Source: a virus (Duplodnaviria > Heunggongvirae > Uroviricota > Caudoviricetes). Taken from it: 37,911 nt of DNA. The notes beneath the pieces were generated by a model. That model had not been told where the DNA came from. It was given only the letters and a program-made list of their open reading frames with translations, and made no database searches. Location of the stretch: IMG/VR virus record IMGVR_UViG_2740892042_000001, positions 1 to 37,911 of that record; one strand, written 5' to 3'. The position numbers were made by a program, and so were the translations under genes. Below, piece by piece: positions 15,799 to 37,587 of this stretch (position 1 is the first letter of the stretch; each line of letters starts with the position of its first letter).

Positions 15799-16441
15799 TG
15801 GCAGCAAATACCGAAATATTTGGGTAGTTGGCGATCTGCACGGATGCTACACGAACCTGATGAAAAAACTGGAGACGATAGGATTCGACACCAAAAAAGA
15901 CCTGCTTATCTCGGTTGGCGATTTGGTCGATCGCGGTACAGAGAACGTCGAATGTCTGGAATTAATCACATTCCCCTGGTTCCGAGCTGTACGTGGAAAC
16001 CATGAGCAAATGATGATTGATGGCTTATCAGAGCGTGGAAACGTTAATCACTGGCTGCTTAATGGCGGTGGCTGGTTCTTCAATCTCGATTACGACAAAG
16101 AAATTCTGGCTAAAGCTCTTGCCCATAAAGCAGATGAACTTCCGTTAATCATTGAACTGGTGAGCAAAGGTAAAAAATATGTCATCTGCCACGCCGATTA
16201 TCCTTGTGACGAATACGAGTTCGGAAAGCCAGTTGATCATCAGCAGGTAATCTGGAACCGCGAACGAATCAGCAACTCACAAGACGGGATCGTGAAAGAA
16301 ATCAAAGGAGCGGACACGTTCATCTTTGGTCATACGCCAGCAGTGAAACCACTCAAGTTTGCCAACCAGATGTATATCGATACCGGCGCAGTGTTCTGCG
16401 GAAACCTCACATTGATTCAGGTACAGGGAGAAGGCGCATGA
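15776..16441 (+). CDS. ninI: Ser/Thr protein phosphatase (lambda NinI-type metallophosphoesterase)
   Basis: From [29 protein letters not shown]..: GDLHG, GDLVDRG and GNHE metallophosphatase motifs. Confidence 0.9.
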
Positions 16442-17061
16442 GACTCGAAAGCGTGGCTAAATTTCATTCGCCAAAAAGCCCGATGATGAGTGACTCACCA
16501 CGGGCCACGGCTTCTGACTCTCTTTCCGGTACTGATGTGATGGCTGCTATGGGGATGGCGCAATCACAAGCCGGATTCGGAATGGCTGCATTCTGCGGTA
16601 AGCATGAACTCAGCCAGAACGACAAACAAAAGGCTATCAACTATCTGATGCAATTTGCACACAAGGTATCGGGGAAATACCGTGGTGTGGCAAAGCTTGA
16701 AGGAAATACTAAGGCAAAGGTACTGCAAGTGCTCGCAACATTCGCTTATGCGGATTATTGCCGTAGTGCCGCGACGCCGGGCGCAAGATGCAGAGATTGT
16801 CACGGTACAGGCCGTGCGGTTGATATAGCCAAAACAGAGCAGTGGGGGAGAGTTGTTGAGAAAGAGTGCGGAAGATGCAAAGGTGTCGGCTATTCAAGAA
16901 TGCCAGCAAGCGCCGCATATCGCGCTGTAACGATGCTAATCCCAAACCTTACTCAACCCACCTGGTCACGCACTGTTAAGCCGCTGTATGACGCTCTGGT
17001 GGTGCAATGCCACAAAGAAGAGTCAATCGCAGACAACATTTTGAATGCGGTCACACGTTAA
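16438..17061 (+). CDS. Q: Late antiterminator Q
   Basis: 207 aa [28 protein letters not shown].. with zinc motif ..[18 protein letters not shown]..; matches lambda Q. Confidence 0.95.
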
Positions 17062-17103: not shown

Positions 17104-17132
17104 TTGACTTTTTGAATAAAGTTGGGTAAATT
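17104..17132 (+). promoter_or_regulatory. Late promoter pR' (-35 TTGACT, -10 TAAATT, 17-nt spacer) with qut
   Basis: Hexamers read directly; same arrangement as lambda pR' downstream of Q. Confidence 0.75.
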
Positions 17133-17729: not shown

Positions 17730-18053
17730 ATGAAGATGCCAGAAAAACATGACCTGTTAGCCGCCATTCTCGCGGCAAAGGAACAAGGCATCGGGGCAAT
17801 CCTTGCGTTTGCAATGGCGTACCTTCGCGGCAGATATAATGGCGGTGCGTTTACAAAAACAGTAATCGACGCAACGATGTGCGCCATTATCGCCTGGTTC
17901 ATTCGTGACCTTCTCGACTTCGCCGGACTAAGTAGCAATCTCGCTTATATAACGAGCGTGTTCATCGGCTACATCGGTACTGACTCGATTGGTTCGCTTA
18001 TCAAACGCTTCGCTGCTAAAAAAGCCGGAGTAGAAGATGGTGGAAATCAATAA
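17730..18053 (+). CDS. S: Holin S (class I, dual-start motif MKMPEK)
   Basis: 107-aa protein with three TM segments; matches lambda S. Confidence 0.95.
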
Positions 18054-18513
18054 TCAACGTAAGGCGTTCCTCGATATGCTGGCGTGGTCAGAGGGAACTG
18101 ATAACGGACGTCAGAAAACCAGAAATCATGGTTATGACGTCATTGTAGGTGGAGAACTATTCACTGATTACTCCGATCACCCTCGCAAACTTGTCACGCT
18201 AAACCCCAGACTCAAATCAACAGCAGCCGGACGTTACCAGCTTCTTTCCCGTTGGTGGGATGCTTACCGTAAGCAGCTTGGCCTGAAAGACTTCTCTCCA
18301 AAAAGCCAGGACGCAGTGGCATTGCAGCAGATTAAAGAGCGTGGCGCTTTACCGATGATTGATCGCGGTGATATTCGTCAGGCAATCGACCGTTGCAGCA
18401 ATATCTGGGCTTCACTGCCGGGCGCTGGTTATGGCCAGTTCGAGCATAAGGCTGACAGCCTGATTGCAAAATTCAAAGAGGCTGGCGGAACGGTCAGAGA
18501 GATTGAGGTATGA
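18037..18513 (+). CDS. R: Endolysin R (lytic transglycosylase)
   Basis: [39 protein letters not shown].. matches lambda R. Confidence 0.95.
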
Positions 18514-18968
18514 GCAGAGTAACCGCGATTATCTCCGCTCTGGTTATCTGCATCATCGTCTGCCTGTTATGGGCTGTTAATCATTACCGTGATAACGCCA
18601 TCGCCTACAAAGAGCAGCGCGATAACAAGGCCAGTGAACTGGAGAAGGCGAACGCCACCATCGCTGACATGCGGAAGCGTCAACGTGATGTAGCAGAACT
18701 CGACGCAAGATACACAAAGGAGCTTGCTGATGCTAACGCGACTATCGAAAGTCTCCGTGCTGATGTTTCTGCTGGGCGTAAGCGCCTGCAAGTCGCCGCC
18801 ACCTGTGCAAAGTCAACGACCGGAGCCAGCAGCATGGGCGATGGAGAAAGCCCAAGACTTACAGCAGATGCTGAACTCAATTATTACCGTCTCCGAAGTG
18901 GAATCGACAAGATAACCGCGCAGGTTAACTACCTGCAGGAATACATCAGGACGCAATGCCTGAAATGA
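18510..18968 (+). CDS. Rz: Spanin inner-membrane subunit Rz
   Basis: N-terminal TM segment then coiled-coil; lambda-like N-terminus with divergent C-terminal half. Confidence 0.85.
18724..18915 (+). CDS. Rz1: Spanin outer-membrane lipoprotein subunit Rz1 (embedded in Rz, +1 frame)
   Basis: Signal peptide with lipobox VSAC, proline-rich mature part; fully nested in Rz. Confidence 0.7.
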
Positions 18969-19003
18969 TCGGGCGATGAAAACCAAAAAAACAGGAGCAA
19001 TAC

Positions 19004-19279
19004 ATGACTAAGTTTTATCACCGCATCTCAGCTTTTCTCTCTGGGTGCTGGGCGTTTATCACGTCTATTTCGTTCGCCATCTTTAGTTTCGGTAGCACAG
19101 CATGCTCGCTTAGTCGGGGTCTGTGGCGTGCTATTTCAGCACTAGCGCCGAAATTTTTACCTGAAAAGGTTGTTTGGCGAATTGTAGAGCGAATGTGTAG
19201 TGAGAGCGTTCGCGAGAAGATTAACGTATTTGGACGTCATCCTCGAAATACAGGCGCATTGTGCAGTTCGTTACTGTAG
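19004..19279 (+). CDS. Hypothetical protein with hydrophobic N-terminal segment (91 aa)
   Basis: AGGAG RBS before ATG 19004; between lysis cassette and terminase. Confidence 0.45.
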   Translation: MTKFYHRISAFLSGCWAFITSISFAIFSFGSTACSLSRGLWRAISALAPKFLPEKVVWRIVERMCSESVREKINVFGRHPRNTGALCSSLL

Positions 19280-19397
19280 TCATTACAAAGCCCATCTTTG
19301 GGTTTGGTTTGTAATTTCGCTGCTGCAATAATCACCAGAAATATGGCATTGTTATTGGTGGTCATATGTCATACCCATCAATTACAAAGGAGCAGAC

Positions 19398-19649
19398 ATG
19401 TCATCTACAAAATTAGTTAAAACTATCCTTTTCCATGGAGATAATAAATATGAAGTTTATGCAACCTCCGAGTACGCTGACGTAGATAGAATCATTCATT
19501 ACAAGTTACGCTCATGTAAAAACACAGATGGTTCAGATGGCAAGTCTGAATCTATATGGGTTGTATATAATCCTGCTGTTCAACTACCGGATGATCTGAA
19601 CTACAAAAAAGTTAGCAACATAGCTCCTTATCTTGAAAAGTTACAATAA
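19398..19649 (+). CDS. Hypothetical AT-rich moron protein (83 aa)
   Basis: AAGGAG RBS; markedly lower GC than flanks; followed by a terminator; flanked by 15-bp near-direct repeats. Confidence 0.55.
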   Translation: MSSTKLVKTILFHGDNKYEVYATSEYADVDRIIHYKLRSCKNTDGSDGKSESIWVVYNPAVQLPDDLNYKKVSNIAPYLEKLQ

Positions 19650-19671
19650 ACTTCCTTTTCCACATGCTAAA

Positions 19672-19696
19672 AGCCTCGTATTCGCGGGGCTTTTTA
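19672..19696 (+). terminator. Intrinsic terminator after the moron ORF
   Basis: GCCTCG-TATTCG-CGGGGC stem (one G-U) followed by TTTTT. Confidence 0.5.
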
Positions 19697-19802
19697 TTGT
19701 CATTACAAAAGCCACTCCCTACAGAGTGGCTTTGATAATGGCTTATACCCTACACGGGATAACTTAACTGATATCCCTTTTAACGGATAAACGGAGCCAA
19801 CA

Positions 19803-20045
19803 ATGGCAGAGATTATTCCCATGACTGAAGAACAGAAATTCCAGTTAGAGATTTACAAGCTGGTCATGAACCAGAACGCAGCTGCAGAGGAAGCATTTCA
19901 GTTCATTGGCACTGACGAACTGAAGCTTGAGCTATTCAAAATTCACTTCCAGTCAGGCGGCGCTAATTCGGATATCACGACCCGCACTATCGAAGCGGTG
20001 CGTAAATCGAAGGAAGCGTTAGACCTGTTCACTACCGGAGCATAA
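19803..20045 (+). CDS. Hypothetical protein (80 aa) upstream of terS
   Basis: Clean ORF with GGAG RBS; ends 2 nt before terS. Confidence 0.5.
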   Translation: MAEIIPMTEEQKFQLEIYKLVMNQNAAAEEAFQFIGTDELKLELFKIHFQSGGANSDITTRTIEAVRKSKEALDLFTTGA

Positions 20046-20047
20046 AC

Positions 20048-20488
20048 ATGGCGCGCCCAACAAAGTATCAAGAGGCGTATGCCGAACAGGCACGCAAACT
20101 GTGCTTGCTGGGCTACACCGATGCAGAACTTGCTGATTTCTTTGAAGTCAGTGAGTCAACTATTAACAAGTGGAAGCTTGATTATCCTAAGTTTTCGGAG
20201 TCCATAAAAAAGGGTAAGGCCGTCGCTGATGCAGAAGTTAGTGACCGTCTTTATCAACGCGCTATGGGCTTCGTGGCTCCAGACATCGATATTCGTGTTA
20301 TTGAAAACAGAATTGTCGAAACTCCGCTTGAGAAGTATTACCCGCCTGATACAACCGCTGCCATCTTCTGGCTTAAGAATCGACAGAAGGATAAATGGCG
20401 CGACAAGGTTGATCACGAGCTAACAGGCAAAGACGGCGGCGCAATCCAGATTGAAACATCACCGATGAGCACTCTATTCGGAAAATGA
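20048..20488 (+). CDS. terS: Terminase small subunit
   Basis: N-terminal HTH-like segment (..GYTDAELADFFEVSESTINKWK..); overlaps the start of the large subunit gene. Confidence 0.7.
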   Translation: MARPTKYQEAYAEQARKLCLLGYTDAELADFFEVSESTINKWKLDYPKFSESIKKGKAVADAEVSDRLYQRAMGFVAPDIDIRVIENRIVETPLEKYYPPDTTAAIFWLKNRQKDKWRDKVDHELTGKDGGAIQIETSPMSTLFGK

Positions 20489-21900
20489 CCTCGATTAATC
20501 CTATCTTTGAACCGTTCATTGAGGCGCATCGCTACAAAGTTGCCAAAGGCGGTCGAGGTAGCGGTAAGTCATGGGCAATTGCTAGGCTGCTTGTTGAAGC
20601 GGCGCGTCGGCAGCCTGTGCGTATTCTCTGCGCTCGTGAACTGCAAAACAGTATCAGCGATTCGGTAATCCGGTTGCTTGAAGACACCATAGAGCGGGAA
20701 GGGTATTCGGCCGAGTTTGAAATTCAGCGTTCCATGATTCGTCATCTCGGAACGAATGCTGAATTCATGTTCTACGGCATCAAAAACAACCCGACGAAGA
20801 TTAAATCGCTCGAAGGCATTGATATCTGCTGGGTGGAAGAAGCGGAAGCGGTAACGAAGGAATCGTGGGATATCCTGATACCAACCATCCGTAAGCCGTT
20901 CTCTGAAATATGGGTAAGCTTCAACCCGAAAAACATACTCGACGATACCTATCAGCGGTTCGTCGTAAATCCTCCTGATGATATTTGCCTGCTGACGGTG
21001 AACTACACCGACAACCCGCACTTTCCTGAAGTTCTCCGTCTGGAGATGGAAGAGTGCAAACGCAGAAATCCGACACTGTATCGTCACATCTGGCTTGGTG
21101 AGCCAGTAAGCGCAAGTGATATGGCAATCATCAAACGTGAATGGCTTGAAGCTGCAACCGATGCGCACAAGAAACTCGGATGGAAAGCGAAAGGCGCTGT
21201 TGTCTCTGCGCATGACCCATCAGATACAGGGCCAGATGCTAAAGGTTATGCATCGCGTCACGGTTCGGTAGTTAAGCGCATTGCCGAAGGTCTTCTGATG
21301 GACATCAACGAGGGTGCTGACTGGGCTACTTCGCTGGCGATTGAAGACGGCGCTGACCATTACCTGTGGGATAGTGATGGCGTCGGTGCGGGGCTACGCA
21401 GACAGACAACGGAAGCGTTCTCCGGCAAGAAAATCACCGCCACGATGTTCAAGGGCAGCGAATCGCCATTCGATGAAGATGCACCGTATCAGGCCGGAGC
21501 ATGGGCTGATGAAGTCGTACAGGGTGACAACGTTCGCACTATTGGCGATGTGTTCCGCAATAAGCGAGCGCAATTCTATTACGCACTGGCTGACAGGCTG
21601 TATCTGACATATCGGGCGGTTGTCCATGGGGAGTATGCAGATCCTGACGACATGCTGAGTTTCGACAAAGAAGCGATAGGCGAGAAGATGCTGGAGAAGC
21701 TGTTTGCAGAACTGACGCAGATTCAGCGCAAATTCAATAACAACGGGAAGCTGGAGCTTATGACTAAGGTCGAAATGAAGCAGAAGCTCGGTATTCCATC
21801 TCCTAACCTGGCTGATGCGCTGATGATGTGTATGCATTGCCCGGATTCGGCTGCGCAAACCGACTATTCCAGTTACTCAATTCCTTGTGGTGTAGGTTGA
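20485..21900 (+). CDS. terL: Terminase large subunit (ATPase plus nuclease)
   Basis: Walker A KGGRGSGKS, Walker B-like IDICWVEEAE, C-terminal nuclease-type acidic residues. Confidence 0.9.
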   Translation: MTSINPIFEPFIEAHRYKVAKGGRGSGKSWAIARLLVEAARRQPVRILCARELQNSISDSVIRLLEDTIEREGYSAEFEIQRSMIRHLGTNAEFMFYGIKNNPTKIKSLEGIDICWVEEAEAVTKESWDILIPTIRKPFSEIWVSFNPKNILDDTYQRFVVNPPDDICLLTVNYTDNPHFPEVLRLEMEECKRRNPTLYRHIWLGEPVSASDMAIIKREWLEAATDAHKKLGWKAKGAVVSAHDPSDTGPDAKGYASRHGSVVKRIAEGLLMDINEGADWATSLAIEDGADHYLWDSDGVGAGLRRQTTEAFSGKKITATMFKGSESPFDEDAPYQAGAWADEVVQGDNVRTIGDVFRNKRAQFYYALADRLYLTYRAVVHGEYADPDDMLSFDKEAIGEKMLEKLFAELTQIQRKFNNNGKLELMTKVEMKQKLGIPSPNLADALMMCMHCPDSAAQTDYSSYSIPCGVG

Positions 21901-21901
21901 T

Positions 21902-24100
21902 ATGGCAGAAAAAAAGATGACTGACTGGCATCGCAAGGTGCTGTGCAACTTTGATAATGCTTGGTCAGCAACGCAGGATATGCGTGAGCAGATTATTGAG
22001 GCTCAACGTTTCGTACGGGTGTCCGGCGCACAGTGGGAAGGCAGCACAAACGCTGGTTACTCATTTGATGAGGGCAGGTTTGAGCATTACCCGCGCTTTG
22101 AGCTGAATAAGATCGCCCGTGAATGTGATCGCATCATTGGTGAGTATCGACAGAATCGCATCAGCGTTAAATTCAGGCCGAAGGACGACAAGGCATCGGA
22201 AGCGTTAGCCGAAAAGATGAACGGCAAATTCCGCGCTGACTATCAGGAAACATCCGGTGGCGAAGCGTGTGATAACGCATTTGATGATGCCGTAACTGGC
22301 GGATTCGGTTGTTTCCGCATGTGTGCCGATTACGAAGATGAAATGGATCCGAGTAACGAACAGCGCCGTATAAGCCTTCTCCCGGTTTACGACCCAGCGA
22401 CATGCGTCTTCTTCGATCAGGACAGCAAGCAATATGACCGCTCTGATGCTATGTGGGCTATGGAAATGTTCTCCATGACACCTAAAGCGTTCGAGGCTGA
22501 ATACCCTGATTCCATCGCGGCAAGCCTTTCTCGTGATGACACTGGCACTCAATATGACTGGTCAACGCCTGATGCCATCTATGTTGGACGCTACTACGAA
22601 GTTCGCATAGAGAAGGTGAAGCTCTCAGCATGGCGCAACCCTGTTAGCGGAGAAACGGCAATCTATGATGAAGATCAAATCAAAGATATTGTCGACGAGC
22701 TAACCGATGGTTCATTCGAACTGATCGGTGAGCGGACAGTGAAGAAACGCCGCGTTTATTGCGGTCTTCTGTCTGGCGCTGAATGGCTGGAAGAACCGAA
22801 GCGTATTCCGGGCGAACATATTCCACTCATCCCGGTATATGGGCGTCGCTCATTTGTTGATAATCAGGAGCGAATCGAAGGCCACGCAGCAAAAGCGATG
22901 GATGCACAGCGTCTTGAGAACCTGATGGTTTCCATGATTGCAGATAACGCTACTCAGGCTGGCGGTGATGGAATTCCTGTAGTTGATGTTGACATGATTC
23001 CTGGTCCTCTCGCCACTCATTGGGCGGAGCGCAACAAAAAGCGCCCGGCGTTCCTGCCGATGGTAAGTCTGAAAAACAAAAACGGAGATATTACTGCGCA
23101 GGCTCAGGTCAGCAGTTATACACCTCCGACACAAATGCCTCCTGCTCTTGCCGGGCTATTGCAGTACACCGGAACGGCTATTCAGCAAATTACAGGCGCG
23201 TCGCAGCTTGAGAACATGCCGAGCAACGTTGCTACCGATACCGTTGATAGCATCTTTAACCGGATGGATACGCAGTCCTATATCTACATGGACAACATGG
23301 CTAAATCCATGCGTCGCGCTGGCGTTGTGTGGCTTTCTATGGCTCGTGAAGTCTATGGCAGCGATACGCCGATGCGTATCGTTAATGAGGACGGCAGCGA
23401 TGACGTGGCGCTGATGACTGGTGAAGTGGTTGACCGTCAGACAGGGCAGGTTATCGCGCTTAACGACCTTTCGCAGGGTAACTATGAAGTGACTGTCGAT
23501 GTCGGTCAGTCGTTCGCTACTCGCCGTGATGCAACGGTTAAGTCGTTACTTTCCATGCTGGCACTTATCCCACCAGGAACGCCGAAGCACGACCTTGTAT
23601 CGTCGATGATTCTCGACAATATGGACGGCGAAGGGATGGATGACCTTAAAGAATACAACCGCAATCAGTTGCTTCTGTCTGGAGTTATCAAGCCGAGAAC
23701 GCCAGAAGAGCAGCAGATGGTTGAGCAGGCGAAACAACAACAGGCCAGTCAGCCAGATCCGGCTATGGTTGCAGCGCAAGGTCAGCTTCTTGCTGGTCAG
23801 GCTGAATTGCAGAAAGCGCAGAACGAACAGGCAGCCATTCAGGTTAAAGCATTCCAGGCACAGACTGATGCTCAGGTTGCTGCGGCAAATGTTGTGAAAA
23901 TCCTCGCATCTGCCGATAGTCAGCAGAAATCTGATATCCGCGAGGCTCTGAAACTGCTCGGACAGTTCCAGCAACAGCAAGGAGACAATGCCCGTGCTGA
24001 TGCAGAGCTTGTCCTGAAAAGTCAGGCACAGGGTCATGCGCAGCGCATGGACATCAGCAGCATCCTACAAAAATCAACTCAGCAACAACCACAGCAGTAA
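21902..24100 (+). CDS. Portal protein (P22 gp1-like, Q-rich C-terminal barrel)
   Basis: 732 aa directly after terL; long C-terminal Gln/Ala-rich helical tail as in P22-like portals. Confidence 0.85.
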   Translation: MAEKKMTDWHRKVLCNFDNAWSATQDMREQIIEAQRFVRVSGAQWEGSTNAGYSFDEGRFEHYPRFELNKIARECDRIIGEYRQNRISVKFRPKDDKASEALAEKMNGKFRADYQETSGGEACDNAFDDAVTGGFGCFRMCADYEDEMDPSNEQRRISLLPVYDPATCVFFDQDSKQYDRSDAMWAMEMFSMTPKAFEAEYPDSIAASLSRDDTGTQYDWSTPDAIYVGRYYEVRIEKVKLSAWRNPVSGETAIYDEDQIKDIVDELTDGSFELIGERTVKKRRVYCGLLSGAEWLEEPKRIPGEHIPLIPVYGRRSFVDNQERIEGHAAKAMDAQRLENLMVSMIADNATQAGGDGIPVVDVDMIPGPLATHWAERNKKRPAFLPMVSLKNKNGDITAQAQVSSYTPPTQMPPALAGLLQYTGTAIQQITGASQLENMPSNVATDTVDSIFNRMDTQSYIYMDNMAKSMRRAGVVWLSMAREVYGSDTPMRIVNEDGSDDVALMTGEVVDRQTGQVIALNDLSQGNYEVTVDVGQSFATRRDATVKSLLSMLALIPPGTPKHDLVSSMILDNMDGEGMDDLKEYNRNQLLLSGVIKPRTPEEQQMVEQAKQQQASQPDPAMVAAQGQLLAGQAELQKAQNEQAAIQVKAFQAQTDAQVAAANVVKILASADSQQKSDIREALKLLGQFQQQQGDNARADAELVLKSQAQGHAQRMDISSILQKSTQQQPQQ

Positions 24101-34935: not shown

Positions 34936-37587
34936 ATGACAGACATTACAGCCAATGTTGTAGTCAGCATGCCTTCGCAACTCTTCACTATGGCTCGTTC
35001 TTTTAAAGCCGTAGCTAATGGAAAGATTTATATCGGTAAAATTGACACTGACCCAGTAAATCCTGAAAACCAGATTCAGGTTTATGTGGAGAATGAAGAC
35101 GGTTCTCACGTTCCTGTTTCGCAACCAATAATCATTAACGCTGCTGGATATCCGGTATATAACGGACAGATTGCCAAATTCGTTACCGTGCAAGGCCATT
35201 CTATGGCTGTTTATGATGCGTATGGTTCGCAGCAGTTCTATTTTCCAAACATTCTGAAATATGATCCTGATCAGTTTAAACAAGAACTAGAGAATAAGTT
35301 TAACAATGGTTCAACTCCATCAATTATAAATTATAAGTACGGTCTTCCAGAAGAAGTAGACGGAGCAACACAAAGGACGCTACAGGATAAACTTGATGAC
35401 CATGTAAATGTTCGCGATTTTGGTGCAAAAGGGGATGGCATTACTGACGATACAGACGCAATAACAAATGCCATCATTTACTGCGCATCTAACGGAAAAC
35501 GCCTGAAGTGGGATTCTGGTGTGTATTTGATTAGCCGCATAAAATGCGGCGGGGATAATTATAACTATGACTGGGTAGCTGATGGCAAGGTTGTCTTAAA
35601 GTCAACCGCAAAAGAGCCTCTTGGCCCAAACTGGATTGATGATTATTTCATAAGACTCGAAGGTGGAGATGCCACGCCAATTGACTATAATTCAACAATA
35701 AATCCTGGTGACACATCAATATCAATTAACTCAGCATATTCTGTTGATGCAGGCGATATAATTATGATTCATGGCAATCGCTTAATTCAGACAGATAATA
35801 GAGGACAGGCTTGTGAAGGTGAAATGCATGTTGTTACTGCTTTTGATAATGCAACAAAAAAAGCGGAGATATCAGGTGCATTTTATTTTTTCTACTCTGC
35901 GAGCAATGATTACTCAACGACCGTAACAGCATCTGTATCCGGAGGTGAATTCTCATTTGGTAATGATGCAACATTAACAAAACAATACAATCAGGTAAAA
36001 GTAACAGGTGTCACCGGAGCTAACGCCGGAATATCAAGATACATAACTCATTGGGATTACGACACTAAAACAGCAAAATTTGAATATGCTCAGGGACCAT
36101 TCCCGTTTAAACCATCTGTTGGAGACGTGTTTAAAATCACAAGAAAGGCAAATATATATAAAAGAAAACCATGCTACGGCAGAATTGTCGGTGATTTCAA
36201 TTTTGAAAGACCTGTCACGCAGAACGCATCTCCTGGTGATTTGGGGTTCCGTGGTCTTGTGATAGATGGCGCTGTTGATATGCATATAGAAGGAATAAAA
36301 CTAATCGGCTTTTCAGAAACTGGAATTTTTCTTGAGTCATGCTACAGAACGAAAATAATAGAACCATATATTGAATACTCAAACCGTGCATATGATTTAA
36401 CAAATGGCACTGGTTATGGTGTTGAAATATACAATAGCAGCTATTGCACAGTCGTGGATATGATAGCATTTGCTTGCAGGAGGGGGCTTGATGTAAGCGG
36501 GACTCAAATGGTATCACTGTATAATAACATTATAAATCCAACGATGATGGGGGGTGGAACTGCATATGATGGAGTTAAATTTTTCCCTGATGGCGATACA
36601 AGAAATTCATGTTGCGGTGGACACGGCCCATCATACGAAACAACTTTTACAGGCGGCAATTCAGTCAATTTGTATTATGCTGGTGTAATACGCGGATTAA
36701 ATGAAGTGTATGATGGAATGAACGCCAGGGGATTTAGCGGCCCGGCTCCTTTTTTTGTAAGATATAGTGGTGGTGGGTTCACGATTCAGAACTGTAATTA
36801 TATTGATGGTTTTACTGAGATGTCTTTGCCATACAACTTGAGGTACAAACCTGTGAATGCAACTCAACGTAATCACAGACCTCTTGTTTTTATTGAAACA
36901 ACTCTGGCACAGACAGACAGAAACTCTTACTATAAAGAACTTCCTGTTGTTATTAAGAATAATACCGCAAGGACTGTTCTCAAGGGCTTTTTACGTTTTG
37001 AGGTTAATGATGGCCTCACCCCTCTAATCCAAAATATTTATTTTGGTGGTAATTTATGCATGGCGAACCCAGAAACATCAGACTCTGTATCAGGGCAAAC
37101 AGAGGCAGTAATGGTTTATTCATCTGTTCCTGGTGCAATAATTGTTCGAAATTTCCATGATCTTGGCGGTAACAGAATTGTTCCTGTTGGAGCAGGATAC
37201 AGATACTGCGGTATGTTCAACACGCCAGATGGAATAGCAGGAACAATAGTTCAACCAGACGGAAAATATCTAATAACACTTGAAGCCAACAAATCTACAA
37301 GTATCCTTGTTGGTGGATACGTCCCATGTGTTCGCCTTGATATGCACGACATACTTGATATTCATGGGGTAATTGCAGTTGGTGTTCTTATTCATCGTGG
37401 TGAGGCAATTGATTTTTCTCCTTTAAAAGAAATTAATAAGCAAAATGTTGTATTGAAAACCGGAGTTCTTTCAGATAATGATGGTGATGAAAATAACTTA
37501 AATATTTCGTTTGACTTTGCAACCATATATTTAAGCAACAAGATGCCAAATAAGATTCAACTATCTATTGAAGTATCAGGAGTGTAA
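34936..37587 (+). CDS. Tailspike protein (P22-type head-binding N-domain, beta-helix receptor-binding body)
   Basis: N-terminal ~115 aa [46 protein letters not shown].. matches the P22/Sf6/HK620 head-binding domain; the remaining ~770 aa are AT-rich and Asn/Gly/Tyr-rich. Confidence 0.9.

Follow-up and report, generated by a model that had tools for sequence, protein, structure and literature searches.

What kind of event places a small, low-GC gene between the lysis and packaging genes of a lambdoid prophage and brackets it with two short direct repeats? The locus that raises this question lies in IMG/VR record IMGVR_UViG_2740892042_000001, of which we analysed positions 1 to 37,911 (the window in what follows, 37,911 nucleotides), an almost complete P22-like prophage (Lederbergvirus, CUS-3/Sf6-type). 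The gene, ORF83 (an open reading frame of 83 amino acids), sits together with a second small gene, ORF91, in a block at the lysis-to-packaging junction of the late operon; an initial annotation had read it as an inserted cargo gene with recombination scars. We find that the region is a cassette slot with conserved edges, which here holds ORF91 and ORF83, that the repeats are arms of a conserved plus-strand stem-loop, and that ORF83 carries its own predicted terminator and a predicted structured leader. Taken as a whole, and including the exchange of cassettes by homology, this is the explanation that we consider probable. It amounts to ordinary lambdoid mosaicism, in which the initial observation was correct and its first interpretation partly wrong.

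The repeats and the stem-loop they belong to

The features on which the argument turns are as follows.

19004-19279, plus strand: ORF91, the upstream small gene of the exchanged block
19279-19318, plus strand: degenerate stem-loop of type A, with the left repeat as 5' arm and a 3' arm that carries mutations compared to the intact copies of strain cM8a and phage HK140
19324-19332, plus strand: candidate extended -10, TGcAATAAT (TGCAATAAT), a motif match with a predicted start near 19339-19341
19343-19403, plus strand: ORF83 leader, in which UGGCAU (19344-19349) pairs with AUGUCA (19398-19403) in minimum-free-energy folds
19398-19649, plus strand: ORF83, 83 amino acids, PHROG 16949, WP_000099430.1
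19669-19699, plus strand: predicted intrinsic terminator, AAAAGCCTCG-TATT-CGCGGGGCTTTT plus TATTG
19699-19742, plus strand: intact, conserved stem-loop of type B, which has the right repeat as 5' arm and borders the DUF2560/packaging module on its upstream side
19743-19812, plus strand: conserved leader/linker, common to P22-like, HK97-like (E. coli 042) and lambda-like (Nu1-type) prophages
19803-20045, plus strand: DUF2560 gene (hkbM/P22 orf80; PF10834, E=1.1e-43), which opens the downstream conserved module

Both repeats that had been reported around the block are present and have no further copies in the window, although the left one ends at 19292 rather than 19293 and is 14 nucleotides (nt) long. 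They are GTCATTACAAAGCC (19279-19292) and GTCATTACAAAAGCC (19699-19713), two versions of the form GTCATTACAAA[A]GCC in which 11 identical bases are followed by GCC past a 1-nt indel. With up to two mismatches allowed, about 0.33 copies would be expected by chance, and two or more copies arose in 3 of 100 shuffles; the direct repeat by itself is only modestly significant.

Each repeat is, however, the 5' arm of a conserved stem-loop with the layout YAUURCA-stem-loop-stem-GAYAAUG. The second hairpin in the block (stem-loop B, 19701-19740) has 17-nt arms of 88% complementarity and reads GUCAUUA-CA-AAAGCCACUC-loop-GAGUGGCUUU-GA-UAAUGGC. Hairpin A is intact in HK140, Sf6 and cM8a (CAUUACAAAGCCCAucuacgggUGGGCUUGAUAAUG), while in the window its 3' arm has decayed, leaving a folding energy of -17.2 kcal/mol (z -2.0) versus -24.6 and -25.1 kcal/mol for intact copies. 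A covariance model built from 13 stem-loop variants (R1) scores the A copy of the window at 20.5 bits (E=0.027), and the B copy at 56.2 bits on the plus strand versus 20.8 bits on the minus strand. Three alleles (A, B and B') keep the feet YAUURC...GAYAAUG, and their stems differ through compensatory changes.

In all, R1 matched 133 copies in 85 sources, with 47 distinct sequences among them. When the 13 variants were aligned with MAFFT, 96.8% of the cells assigned to pairs could pair, compared to 34-54% in slid controls; 7 of 17 pairs had changed on both sides, and the covariation score of 0.427 (shuffled mean 0.249) was reached in 0 of 500 shuffles. The R1 alignment of the 47 distinct sequences gave 95.0% paired cells versus 32-48% in slid controls, both-side changes in 10 of 17 pairs, and a covariation score of 0.467 against a shuffled mean of 0.242, which likewise was reached in 0 of 500 shuffles.

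The pairs also tell the two strands apart. G·U pairs make up 115 of 798 cells (14%) and would be A·C mismatches on the other strand; pair 17-28 is U·G in 43 of the 47 sequences, and throughout the family R1 scores about 21 bits on the reverse strand versus 56-66 bits forward. The G·U pattern and the low reverse-strand scores together indicate that the structure is conserved in plus-strand RNA, that is, in the late mRNA. Stem-loop B had first been taken for a terminator on the opposite strand, and the minus strand of the window does indeed have the hairpin followed by TTTTGTAATGA; but the B' allele has no U-tract on either strand, and this, the G·U pattern and the 20.8 versus 56.2 bits all speak against that assignment. 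B was probably not selected as a minus-strand terminator. No Rfam family came near its gathering score in 18900-20100 (best 24.5 bits versus 50, all E>=0.25), and there were no Rfam matches in three comparison loci, L003, L004 and L007.

As for the role of the stem-loop, its 3' arm holds an invariant Shine-Dalgarno (SD)-like run, G-G/A-G-U/G-G-G, and an invariant AUG, so that translational gating is one candidate; mRNA processing or stabilisation of the T7 RNase III-site type, suggested by analogy, and a pure insulator are the others. Phage T7 has RNase III processing stem-loops of the R1.1 type between its cistrons. Like them, the stem-loops described here consist of a lower stem, an internal loop, an upper stem and a loop, measure about 40 nt, lie between cistrons of a polycistronic mRNA and have no U-tract; the sequences, however, are unrelated, and the likeness is a lead only. 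The idea of an IHF site in the stem-loop foot was rejected, as we saw by eye no match to what we take to be its consensus.

In the complete genomes of P22 (copy at 40309-40349) and HK620 (copies at 18880-18919 and 19133-19173) and in the window, the stem-loop has one or two copies each, all of them between Rz and the terminase; lambda 44000-48502 has no R1 copy. The exact type A 30-mer is found in more than 120 IMG/VR contigs (a lower bound), where the sequences upstream of it are of at least 10 unrelated kinds, several with a stop codon at their end, and those downstream fall mainly into two contexts. A B or B' copy lies 194-664 nt downstream of A in 52 of 80 contigs, and the two enclose at least six classes of content: most commonly a 160-nt segment without an ORF (36 contigs), which is the conserved 3' flank of rha-type cassettes as judged by comparison with P22 40150-40308, and otherwise an Sf6 gp66-like gene (8 contigs), a 216-nt segment (4 contigs), or genes of 61, 80 and 72 amino acids. 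HK140, Sf6 and HK620 all have both repeat copies with other DNA between them and lack ORF83, while two lambda-like prophages (L005 and L006) have GTCATTACAAA twice, 47 nt apart, around a terminator alone. Since the repeats are present at the slot with and without ORF83, they are standing features of the slot and not products of the arrival of this gene. That they flank such different contents, and are arms of a covarying stem-loop, leaves no basis for the scars proposed in the initial annotation.

Some further observations concern what lies beside the stem-loop in other phages. The segment without an ORF (HK140, L004 1700-1853), whose homology to the P22 rha flank covers L161 40180-40308, is probably a remnant left after deletion of a rha-type gene, and the whole A-to-B' stretch that contains it folds strongly (z = -6.7). 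In P22 (L161), an unannotated ORF of about 85 codons lies on the minus strand at about 40440-40710, between the stem-loop and orf80; it has an AAGGAG ribosome-binding site (RBS), starts near 40705 and comes with a terminator at about 40406-40430 that looks bidirectional, so that the slot seems to hold a moron in P22 too. The annotated P22 'orf25' (40329-40406) has its start ATG within the hairpin loop and continues through the 3' arm, and the covariation suggests that this stretch is an RNA element rather than coding sequence.

Exchange of the contents of the slot

Relatives were compared with the window by blastn and multiple alignment. Homology to CUS-3 extends through 18969, the stop of Rz, and comes back at 19724; for Sf6 it extends through the same position and comes back at 19699. 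HK140, an HK97-like siphovirus, is homologous over 18400-19303, thus having ORF91 (= gp68) and the left repeat in common with the window, and again from 19724. The flanks are 91-98% identical to the window in all three phages, yet ORF83 is absent. Relative to CUS-3, 755 bp (base pairs) in the window take the place of 1036 bp with a 203-amino-acid ORF, and on this alignment the ORF83 block is a replacement rather than a simple insertion. The occupants of the slot across phages are Rha, KilA-N, gp66-like genes or ORF91/ORF83, and it is never empty. The block also differs in composition, with a GC content of 36.8% (ORF83 34.1%) against 50.7% in R-Rz and 49.6% in DUF2560-TerL, which places it within the lowest 1% of 435-nt windows. 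What had been described at the outset as a cassette of deviant GC at the lysis-packaging junction is thus supported as a horizontally exchanged accessory one, whereas the recombination scars are not.

Comparison of relatives for the stretch between the repeats, which the initial annotation had proposed, finds it in few genomes: besides its absence from CUS-3, Sf6 and HK140, the complete block is present in 17 of 5426 complete E. coli genomes, and about 194 further E. coli genomes have only 19672-19713, that is, the terminator and the right repeat. In E. coli 042 the whole block is 100% identical and is followed by HNH and P27-type TerS genes. The 16 near-identical genomic copies, like the IMG/VR and metagenome copies, all have the 042-type context, and all lose their homology to the window at 19812. 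As this holds for every other E. coli-type copy of the block, the window is a recombinant, whose joint to the P22-like packaging module lies somewhere inside the shared segment 19699-19812. Strain cM8a has the cassette 19281-19695 at 92.8% identity in yet another place, between a BRO-N gene pair and a KilA-N gene, and cassettes of this type have no right repeat directly after the terminator; the same ORF without the complete pair of repeats, which answers to an observation named at the outset as one that would refute insertion, therefore does occur. With near-identical copies in at least three gene contexts, the ORF83 cassette is mobile and moron-like.

On the explanation that we favour, 18969-19724 is the present occupant of a hypervariable accessory slot that lies in lambdoid phages between the lysis cassette (Rz) and the packaging module (DUF2560-TerS-TerL). 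Its conserved edges are the 3' end of Rz on the left and stem-loop B with the leader of about 70 nt on the right, and one or two stem-loop copies punctuate it, here a decayed A after ORF91 and an intact B before DUF2560. Judging from the breakpoints and from published work on lambdoid phages, cassettes would be swapped by homology-driven recombination in shared sequences and without target duplication, and the linker 19743-19812 is the likely homologous-recombination substrate by which the block was joined to the P22-like packaging module. Such an exchange is consistent with the experimental finding that lambdoid mosaics are formed by relaxed, homology-driven recombination with Rad52-like recombinases (PMC3945230), and with the position of the joint inside 19699-19812. 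Searches of the literature for DUF2560, the protein accession and boundary sequences turned up no work on this junction in particular.

The linker itself, which includes the first 10 nt of the DUF2560 ORF, is nearly unchanged across packaging modules of the P22-like, HK97-like (HNH/P27 TerS) and lambda-like (DUF1441) kinds; in the lambda-like loci its homology ends at 19791, short of the DUF2560 ORF. It holds a small hairpin, GGGATA..TATCCC, followed by TTTT, as well as a 9-codon ORF that starts at the AUG of the stem-loop foot.

The ORF83 unit

The 83-codon ORF, its AAGGAG RBS, its low GC content and a terminator are all present in the sequence, as first described, with the SD at 19387-19392 and 5 nt between it and the ATG. 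In the first 20 kb, the predicted terminator (19669-19694 plus a T-run) ranks among the best matches to a plus-strand terminator, and a strong terminator of the GCCYCG...CGGGGCUUUUU type directly follows every ORF83 homologue. HK75 and Emek have annotated post-Rz terminators of this family, and in cM8a the terminator moves together with ORF83. Of the marks by which morons are recognized (PMC3594210), ORF83 thus shows absence from relatives, deviant composition and a (predicted) terminator of its own, while its promoter is a candidate.

Upstream of the gene, the candidate extended -10 (TGCAATAAT) has a weak -35, TTGGTT, at 19304-19309, with a 17-nt spacer between them. There are only 12 extended -10 motifs on both strands of the window, and this one is the sole one in 17-21 kb; a stricter consensus promoter scan gave no promoter upstream of ORF83 and did not list the extended -10. 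A -10-like hexamer is found exactly 10 nt before the leader motif ATGGCAT in four diverged lineages (AATAAT, AAATAT, GATAAT and GATAAT), and in L018 and L027 this hexamer is the 3' foot of the stem-loop. From the spacing we infer, and only infer, that a transcript would start 3-4 nt before the 5' strand of the start-codon helix, which would make this a 5'-terminal helix. A promoter of its own for ORF83 is plausible, as a candidate. R1 stem-loops lie upstream of ORF83 homologues in L007/L015, L018, L019 and the L020 group, so that the linkage of stem-loop to ORF83 is old; in L017, R1 found no stem-loop of the family within the 6.2-kb locus of the ORF83 homologue.

In the leader, the 5' motif [AG]UG[GC]CAU pairs with the start and second codons, and inner helices form between 19350-19352 and 19384-19386 and between 19354-19361 and 19375-19382, which in the window leaves the SD in an 11-nt internal loop. 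The leader is conserved in most lineages; L035-L037 differ in sequence and keep the start-codon pairing. A pyrimidine run also pairs with the SD in L017, L018, L027, the L020 group and L037. At the centre of the start-codon helix stands G·U in the window, G·G in L017, L018 and L027, G-C in L035, and C-G in the L020 group and L036. With a model of three helices, 86.6% of cells are paired (MAFFT) versus 35-50% when slid, and the covariation score is 0.250 versus 0.205 shuffled. The start-codon region has a predicted pairing probability of 0.6-0.95 in all 12 leaders, and for the AUG and three further nucleotides (AUG+3) of the window it is 0.90. In sister copies, position 19353 has a T/A polymorphism by which a U·U mismatch is closed, and the folding energy falls to -16.2 kcal/mol.

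Two other roles for the leader were considered and rejected. Between 20 and 50 C the predicted pairing hardly changes in any of the 11 leaders, contrary to what an RNA thermometer, with SD/AUG pairing that melts between about 30 and 42 C, would require, and translational coupling to a conserved upstream ORF starting at ATGGCAT fails because the frame is not conserved (25 codons in the window, a different frame in L017/L018, two codons in L027, and absent in L020).

Relatives of ORF83, at 40-100% identity, are found at 19 viral-contig loci, one genome locus (Atlantibacter) and 11 metagenome loci, and homologues overall span 35-100%; at the loci inspected, the homologue has the spanin genes on one side and an HNH or terminase gene on the other. 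The family is rare, with a single homologue, that of Atlantibacter, in a scan of species-representative genomes, 5 clusters at 90% identity among 5.8 billion proteins and, at 50% identity, about 7 genuine ones among 1.84 billion. Two long proteins from the exhaustive search, P0011 and P0013, were discarded as relatives because they are tandem-repeat translations. ORF83 had no match in Pfam, NCBIfam or PADLOC, PHROG 16949 carries no function, the best hit of a PDB profile search had E = 0.52, and its fold matched nothing in BFVD below E = 0.001. The fold itself is confidently predicted as a four-strand antiparallel sheet with a C-terminal helix, and ORF83 would be a small, soluble, cytoplasmic protein; conserved length, start context and this confident fold argue that it is a real protein.

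Two observations on neighbouring small genes may be added. In the Atlantibacter locus (L019), a 75-amino-acid ORF at 2402-2629, two genes upstream of the ORF83 homologue and with terminators of its own after it, is a distant ORF83 paralogue (hhalign probability 87.5%, E = 3.6e-6). ORF91, which belongs to PHROG 34701 (E=9.5e-54), equals HK140 gp68 and is hydrophobic in its N-terminal half; its TAG stop codon and the left repeat have one base in common, the first of the repeat. It has a good RBS (ACAGGAG), and it is not called in the RefSeq annotation of E. coli 042 despite DNA that is 99.7% identical.

We picture the ORF83 unit as a self-contained series of stem-loop, -10-like box, predicted structured leader, gene and predicted intrinsic terminator. 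During lytic growth ORF83 would be transcribed with the Q-antiterminated late operon, and in the lysogen it may be weakly transcribed from its own extended -10 promoter. The leader would restrain its translation by pairing to the start codon, as well as to the SD in most lineages. We can only guess that the protein most likely binds a partner protein and has a role of the accessory, lysogenic-conversion or anti-defence type.

Several points weigh against parts of this explanation. The ORF83 promoter is a motif match only; its -35 is poor, and the standard scan missed it. Covariation in the leader rests on about 7 lineages, its score was reached in 8 of 500 shuffles and its count of cells with both-side changes in 11 of 500; the leader of the window folds weakly (-12.3 kcal/mol, z = -0.07) and leaves the SD open (pairing probability 0.05). 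For the stem-loop, the R1 alignment is fitted to the model and so favours the structure, and the independent MAFFT alignment gave similar results. The edges of homology, finally, partly reflect divergence of alleles (B versus B') rather than true crossovers.

Other explanations and known systems

The genes around the block are these.

16438-17061: Q
17104-17132: pR'
17730-18053: holin S
18037-18513: endolysin R
18510-18968: Rz (with Rz1)
20048-20488: TerS
20485-21900: TerL
21902-24100: portal

Elsewhere in the window, a second low-GC island (about 35-37%) lies at about 2240-2600 on the minus strand, adjoining int/xis, where a 99-amino-acid ORF (2297-2596) is followed by terminator-like minus-strand hairpins at 2278-2259 and 2247-2228; it is another candidate accessory unit. 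The lowest GC of the window (down to 33.6%) is found at about 35700-37400, in the 3' part of an ORF of 883 amino acids (34936-37587) and just past it; to judge by where it lies, this ORF presumably encodes the tailspike, with a low GC that would suit a swapped receptor-binding domain.

Two near-identical direct repeats around a low-GC block, found nowhere else in the window, are what one would expect if ORF83 had been inserted as a unit and the 14-15-bp repeats were target-site duplications or scars. We nonetheless regard this as very improbable, as both copies are present in HK140, Sf6 and HK620 where ORF83 is not, stand 47 nt apart around nothing but a terminator in L005 and L006, and are arms of a covarying stem-loop; the right copy is missing directly after the terminator of the cM8a-type cassette, and the cassette contains neither transposase nor recombinase. 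The variable centres and conserved ends of these imperfect palindromes, their structure conservation on one strand, and the small gene cassettes that they flank would also be compatible with attC-like folded sites for site-specific exchange of cassettes. No integron-type integrase is present, however, homology breakpoints vary within the element (loop, 5' arm or 3' foot), there are only one or two copies per genome, and the feet do not match what we take to be the attC core consensus, so that this idea is hardly credible. A more serious competitor, and one that we hold to be possible though not favoured, is that ORF83 is a plain late-operon gene transcribed from pR' under Q, with a post-lysis terminator and with a leader that tunes translation in a polycistronic message. 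ORF83 is oriented like the late operon and follows pR' on the downstream side, its terminator is of the family annotated right after Rz in HK75 and Emek, the scan found no canonical sigma-70 promoter, and the flanking stem-loops are conserved on the strand of the late mRNA. Against this stand the extended -10 at 19324-19332, one of 12 in the window, the -10-like hexamer at a fixed 10 nt from the leader motif in four diverged lineages, the terminator that accompanies ORF83 into another context in cM8a, and the low GC and private terminator, which suit the definition of a moron (PMC3594210).

Morons are best known from lambdoid phages, with HK97 gene 15 and lambda bor as examples (Juhala et al. 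2000; reviewed in PMC3594210). Like these, ORF83 is extra DNA compared to related phages, differs in GC and has a private predicted terminator, and it lies inside the late operon between conserved modules, with lambda bor in the same region downstream of Rz; unlike these, its promoter is only a candidate, its slot is always filled, as in a replacement, and a conserved leader is predicted to restrain its translation. The regulatory PeSL cassettes of T4-type phages (PMC2839356, PMC4122927) offer another comparison, for they too are short conserved intergenic stem-loop motifs that border swapped accessory genes and are plausible substrates for homologous exchange. If the stem-loops here were terminator/promoter cassettes of this sort, they would end the upstream unit, start the next one from GAYAAT and supply homology for shuffling. 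Their position at replacement boundaries, directly upstream of transcription units, fits this, as do the 3' foot GATAAT, which matches 5/6 of the -10 consensus, and the 5' foot ATTACA, which resembles a -35. But the two feet are 21-22 bp apart and lack a TG extension, and the scan found no consensus sigma-70 promoter at functional spacing; there are one or two copies per genome, at one junction, versus about 50 PeSLs (PMC2839356); covariation and the G·U asymmetry indicate an RNA element; and without a U-tract a terminator function of B' is unlikely. Altogether we find this explanation unlikely.

A different comparison concerns joints between modules. Boundary sequences at lambdoid mosaic joints are an idea that reportedly goes back to Susskind and Botstein and to Clark and colleagues, who are said to have discussed it for HK620 in 2001. 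The segments described here resemble boundary or linker sequences in being short, conserved and common to unrelated modules at transitions from homology to non-homology, and differ from them in that the conserved segment is itself a structured element under selection. The Sf6 record annotates 'bsq' features, of which only bsq7 (inside Rz) falls in the junction stretch; the stem-loops are not annotated there.

One may go further and view the stem-loop as a dedicated RNA element of the late operon at the lysis/packaging boundary, with a specific function and doubling as homology for swaps, and ORF83 as a throttled accessory protein of new fold; as a whole we consider this rather doubtful, if worth stating. 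The stem-loop would then mark the boundary between lysis and packaging in P22-like, HK97-like and lambda-like phages, and processing or stabilisation of the RNase III type, for example, would separate lysis mRNA from structural mRNA. Alternatively, upstream translation might open the stem-loop and so expose the SD-like GAGUGG and the invariant AUG of the 3' arm. ORF83 would possibly be toxic or defence-related.

Returning to the explanation that we favour, a conserved-edge slot whose contents are exchanged by homology, the locus shows cleanly, and within well-defined limits, how small accessory genes change hands among lambdoid phages: the slot is fixed, and phages whose packaging systems are of three unrelated kinds have its conserved edges in common. 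Two things are modestly new, a strongly covarying, strand-specific RNA stem-loop family that is not in Rfam, and a rare orphan protein family with a conserved leader that is predicted to restrain its translation. Both leave current views of phage mosaicism standing.

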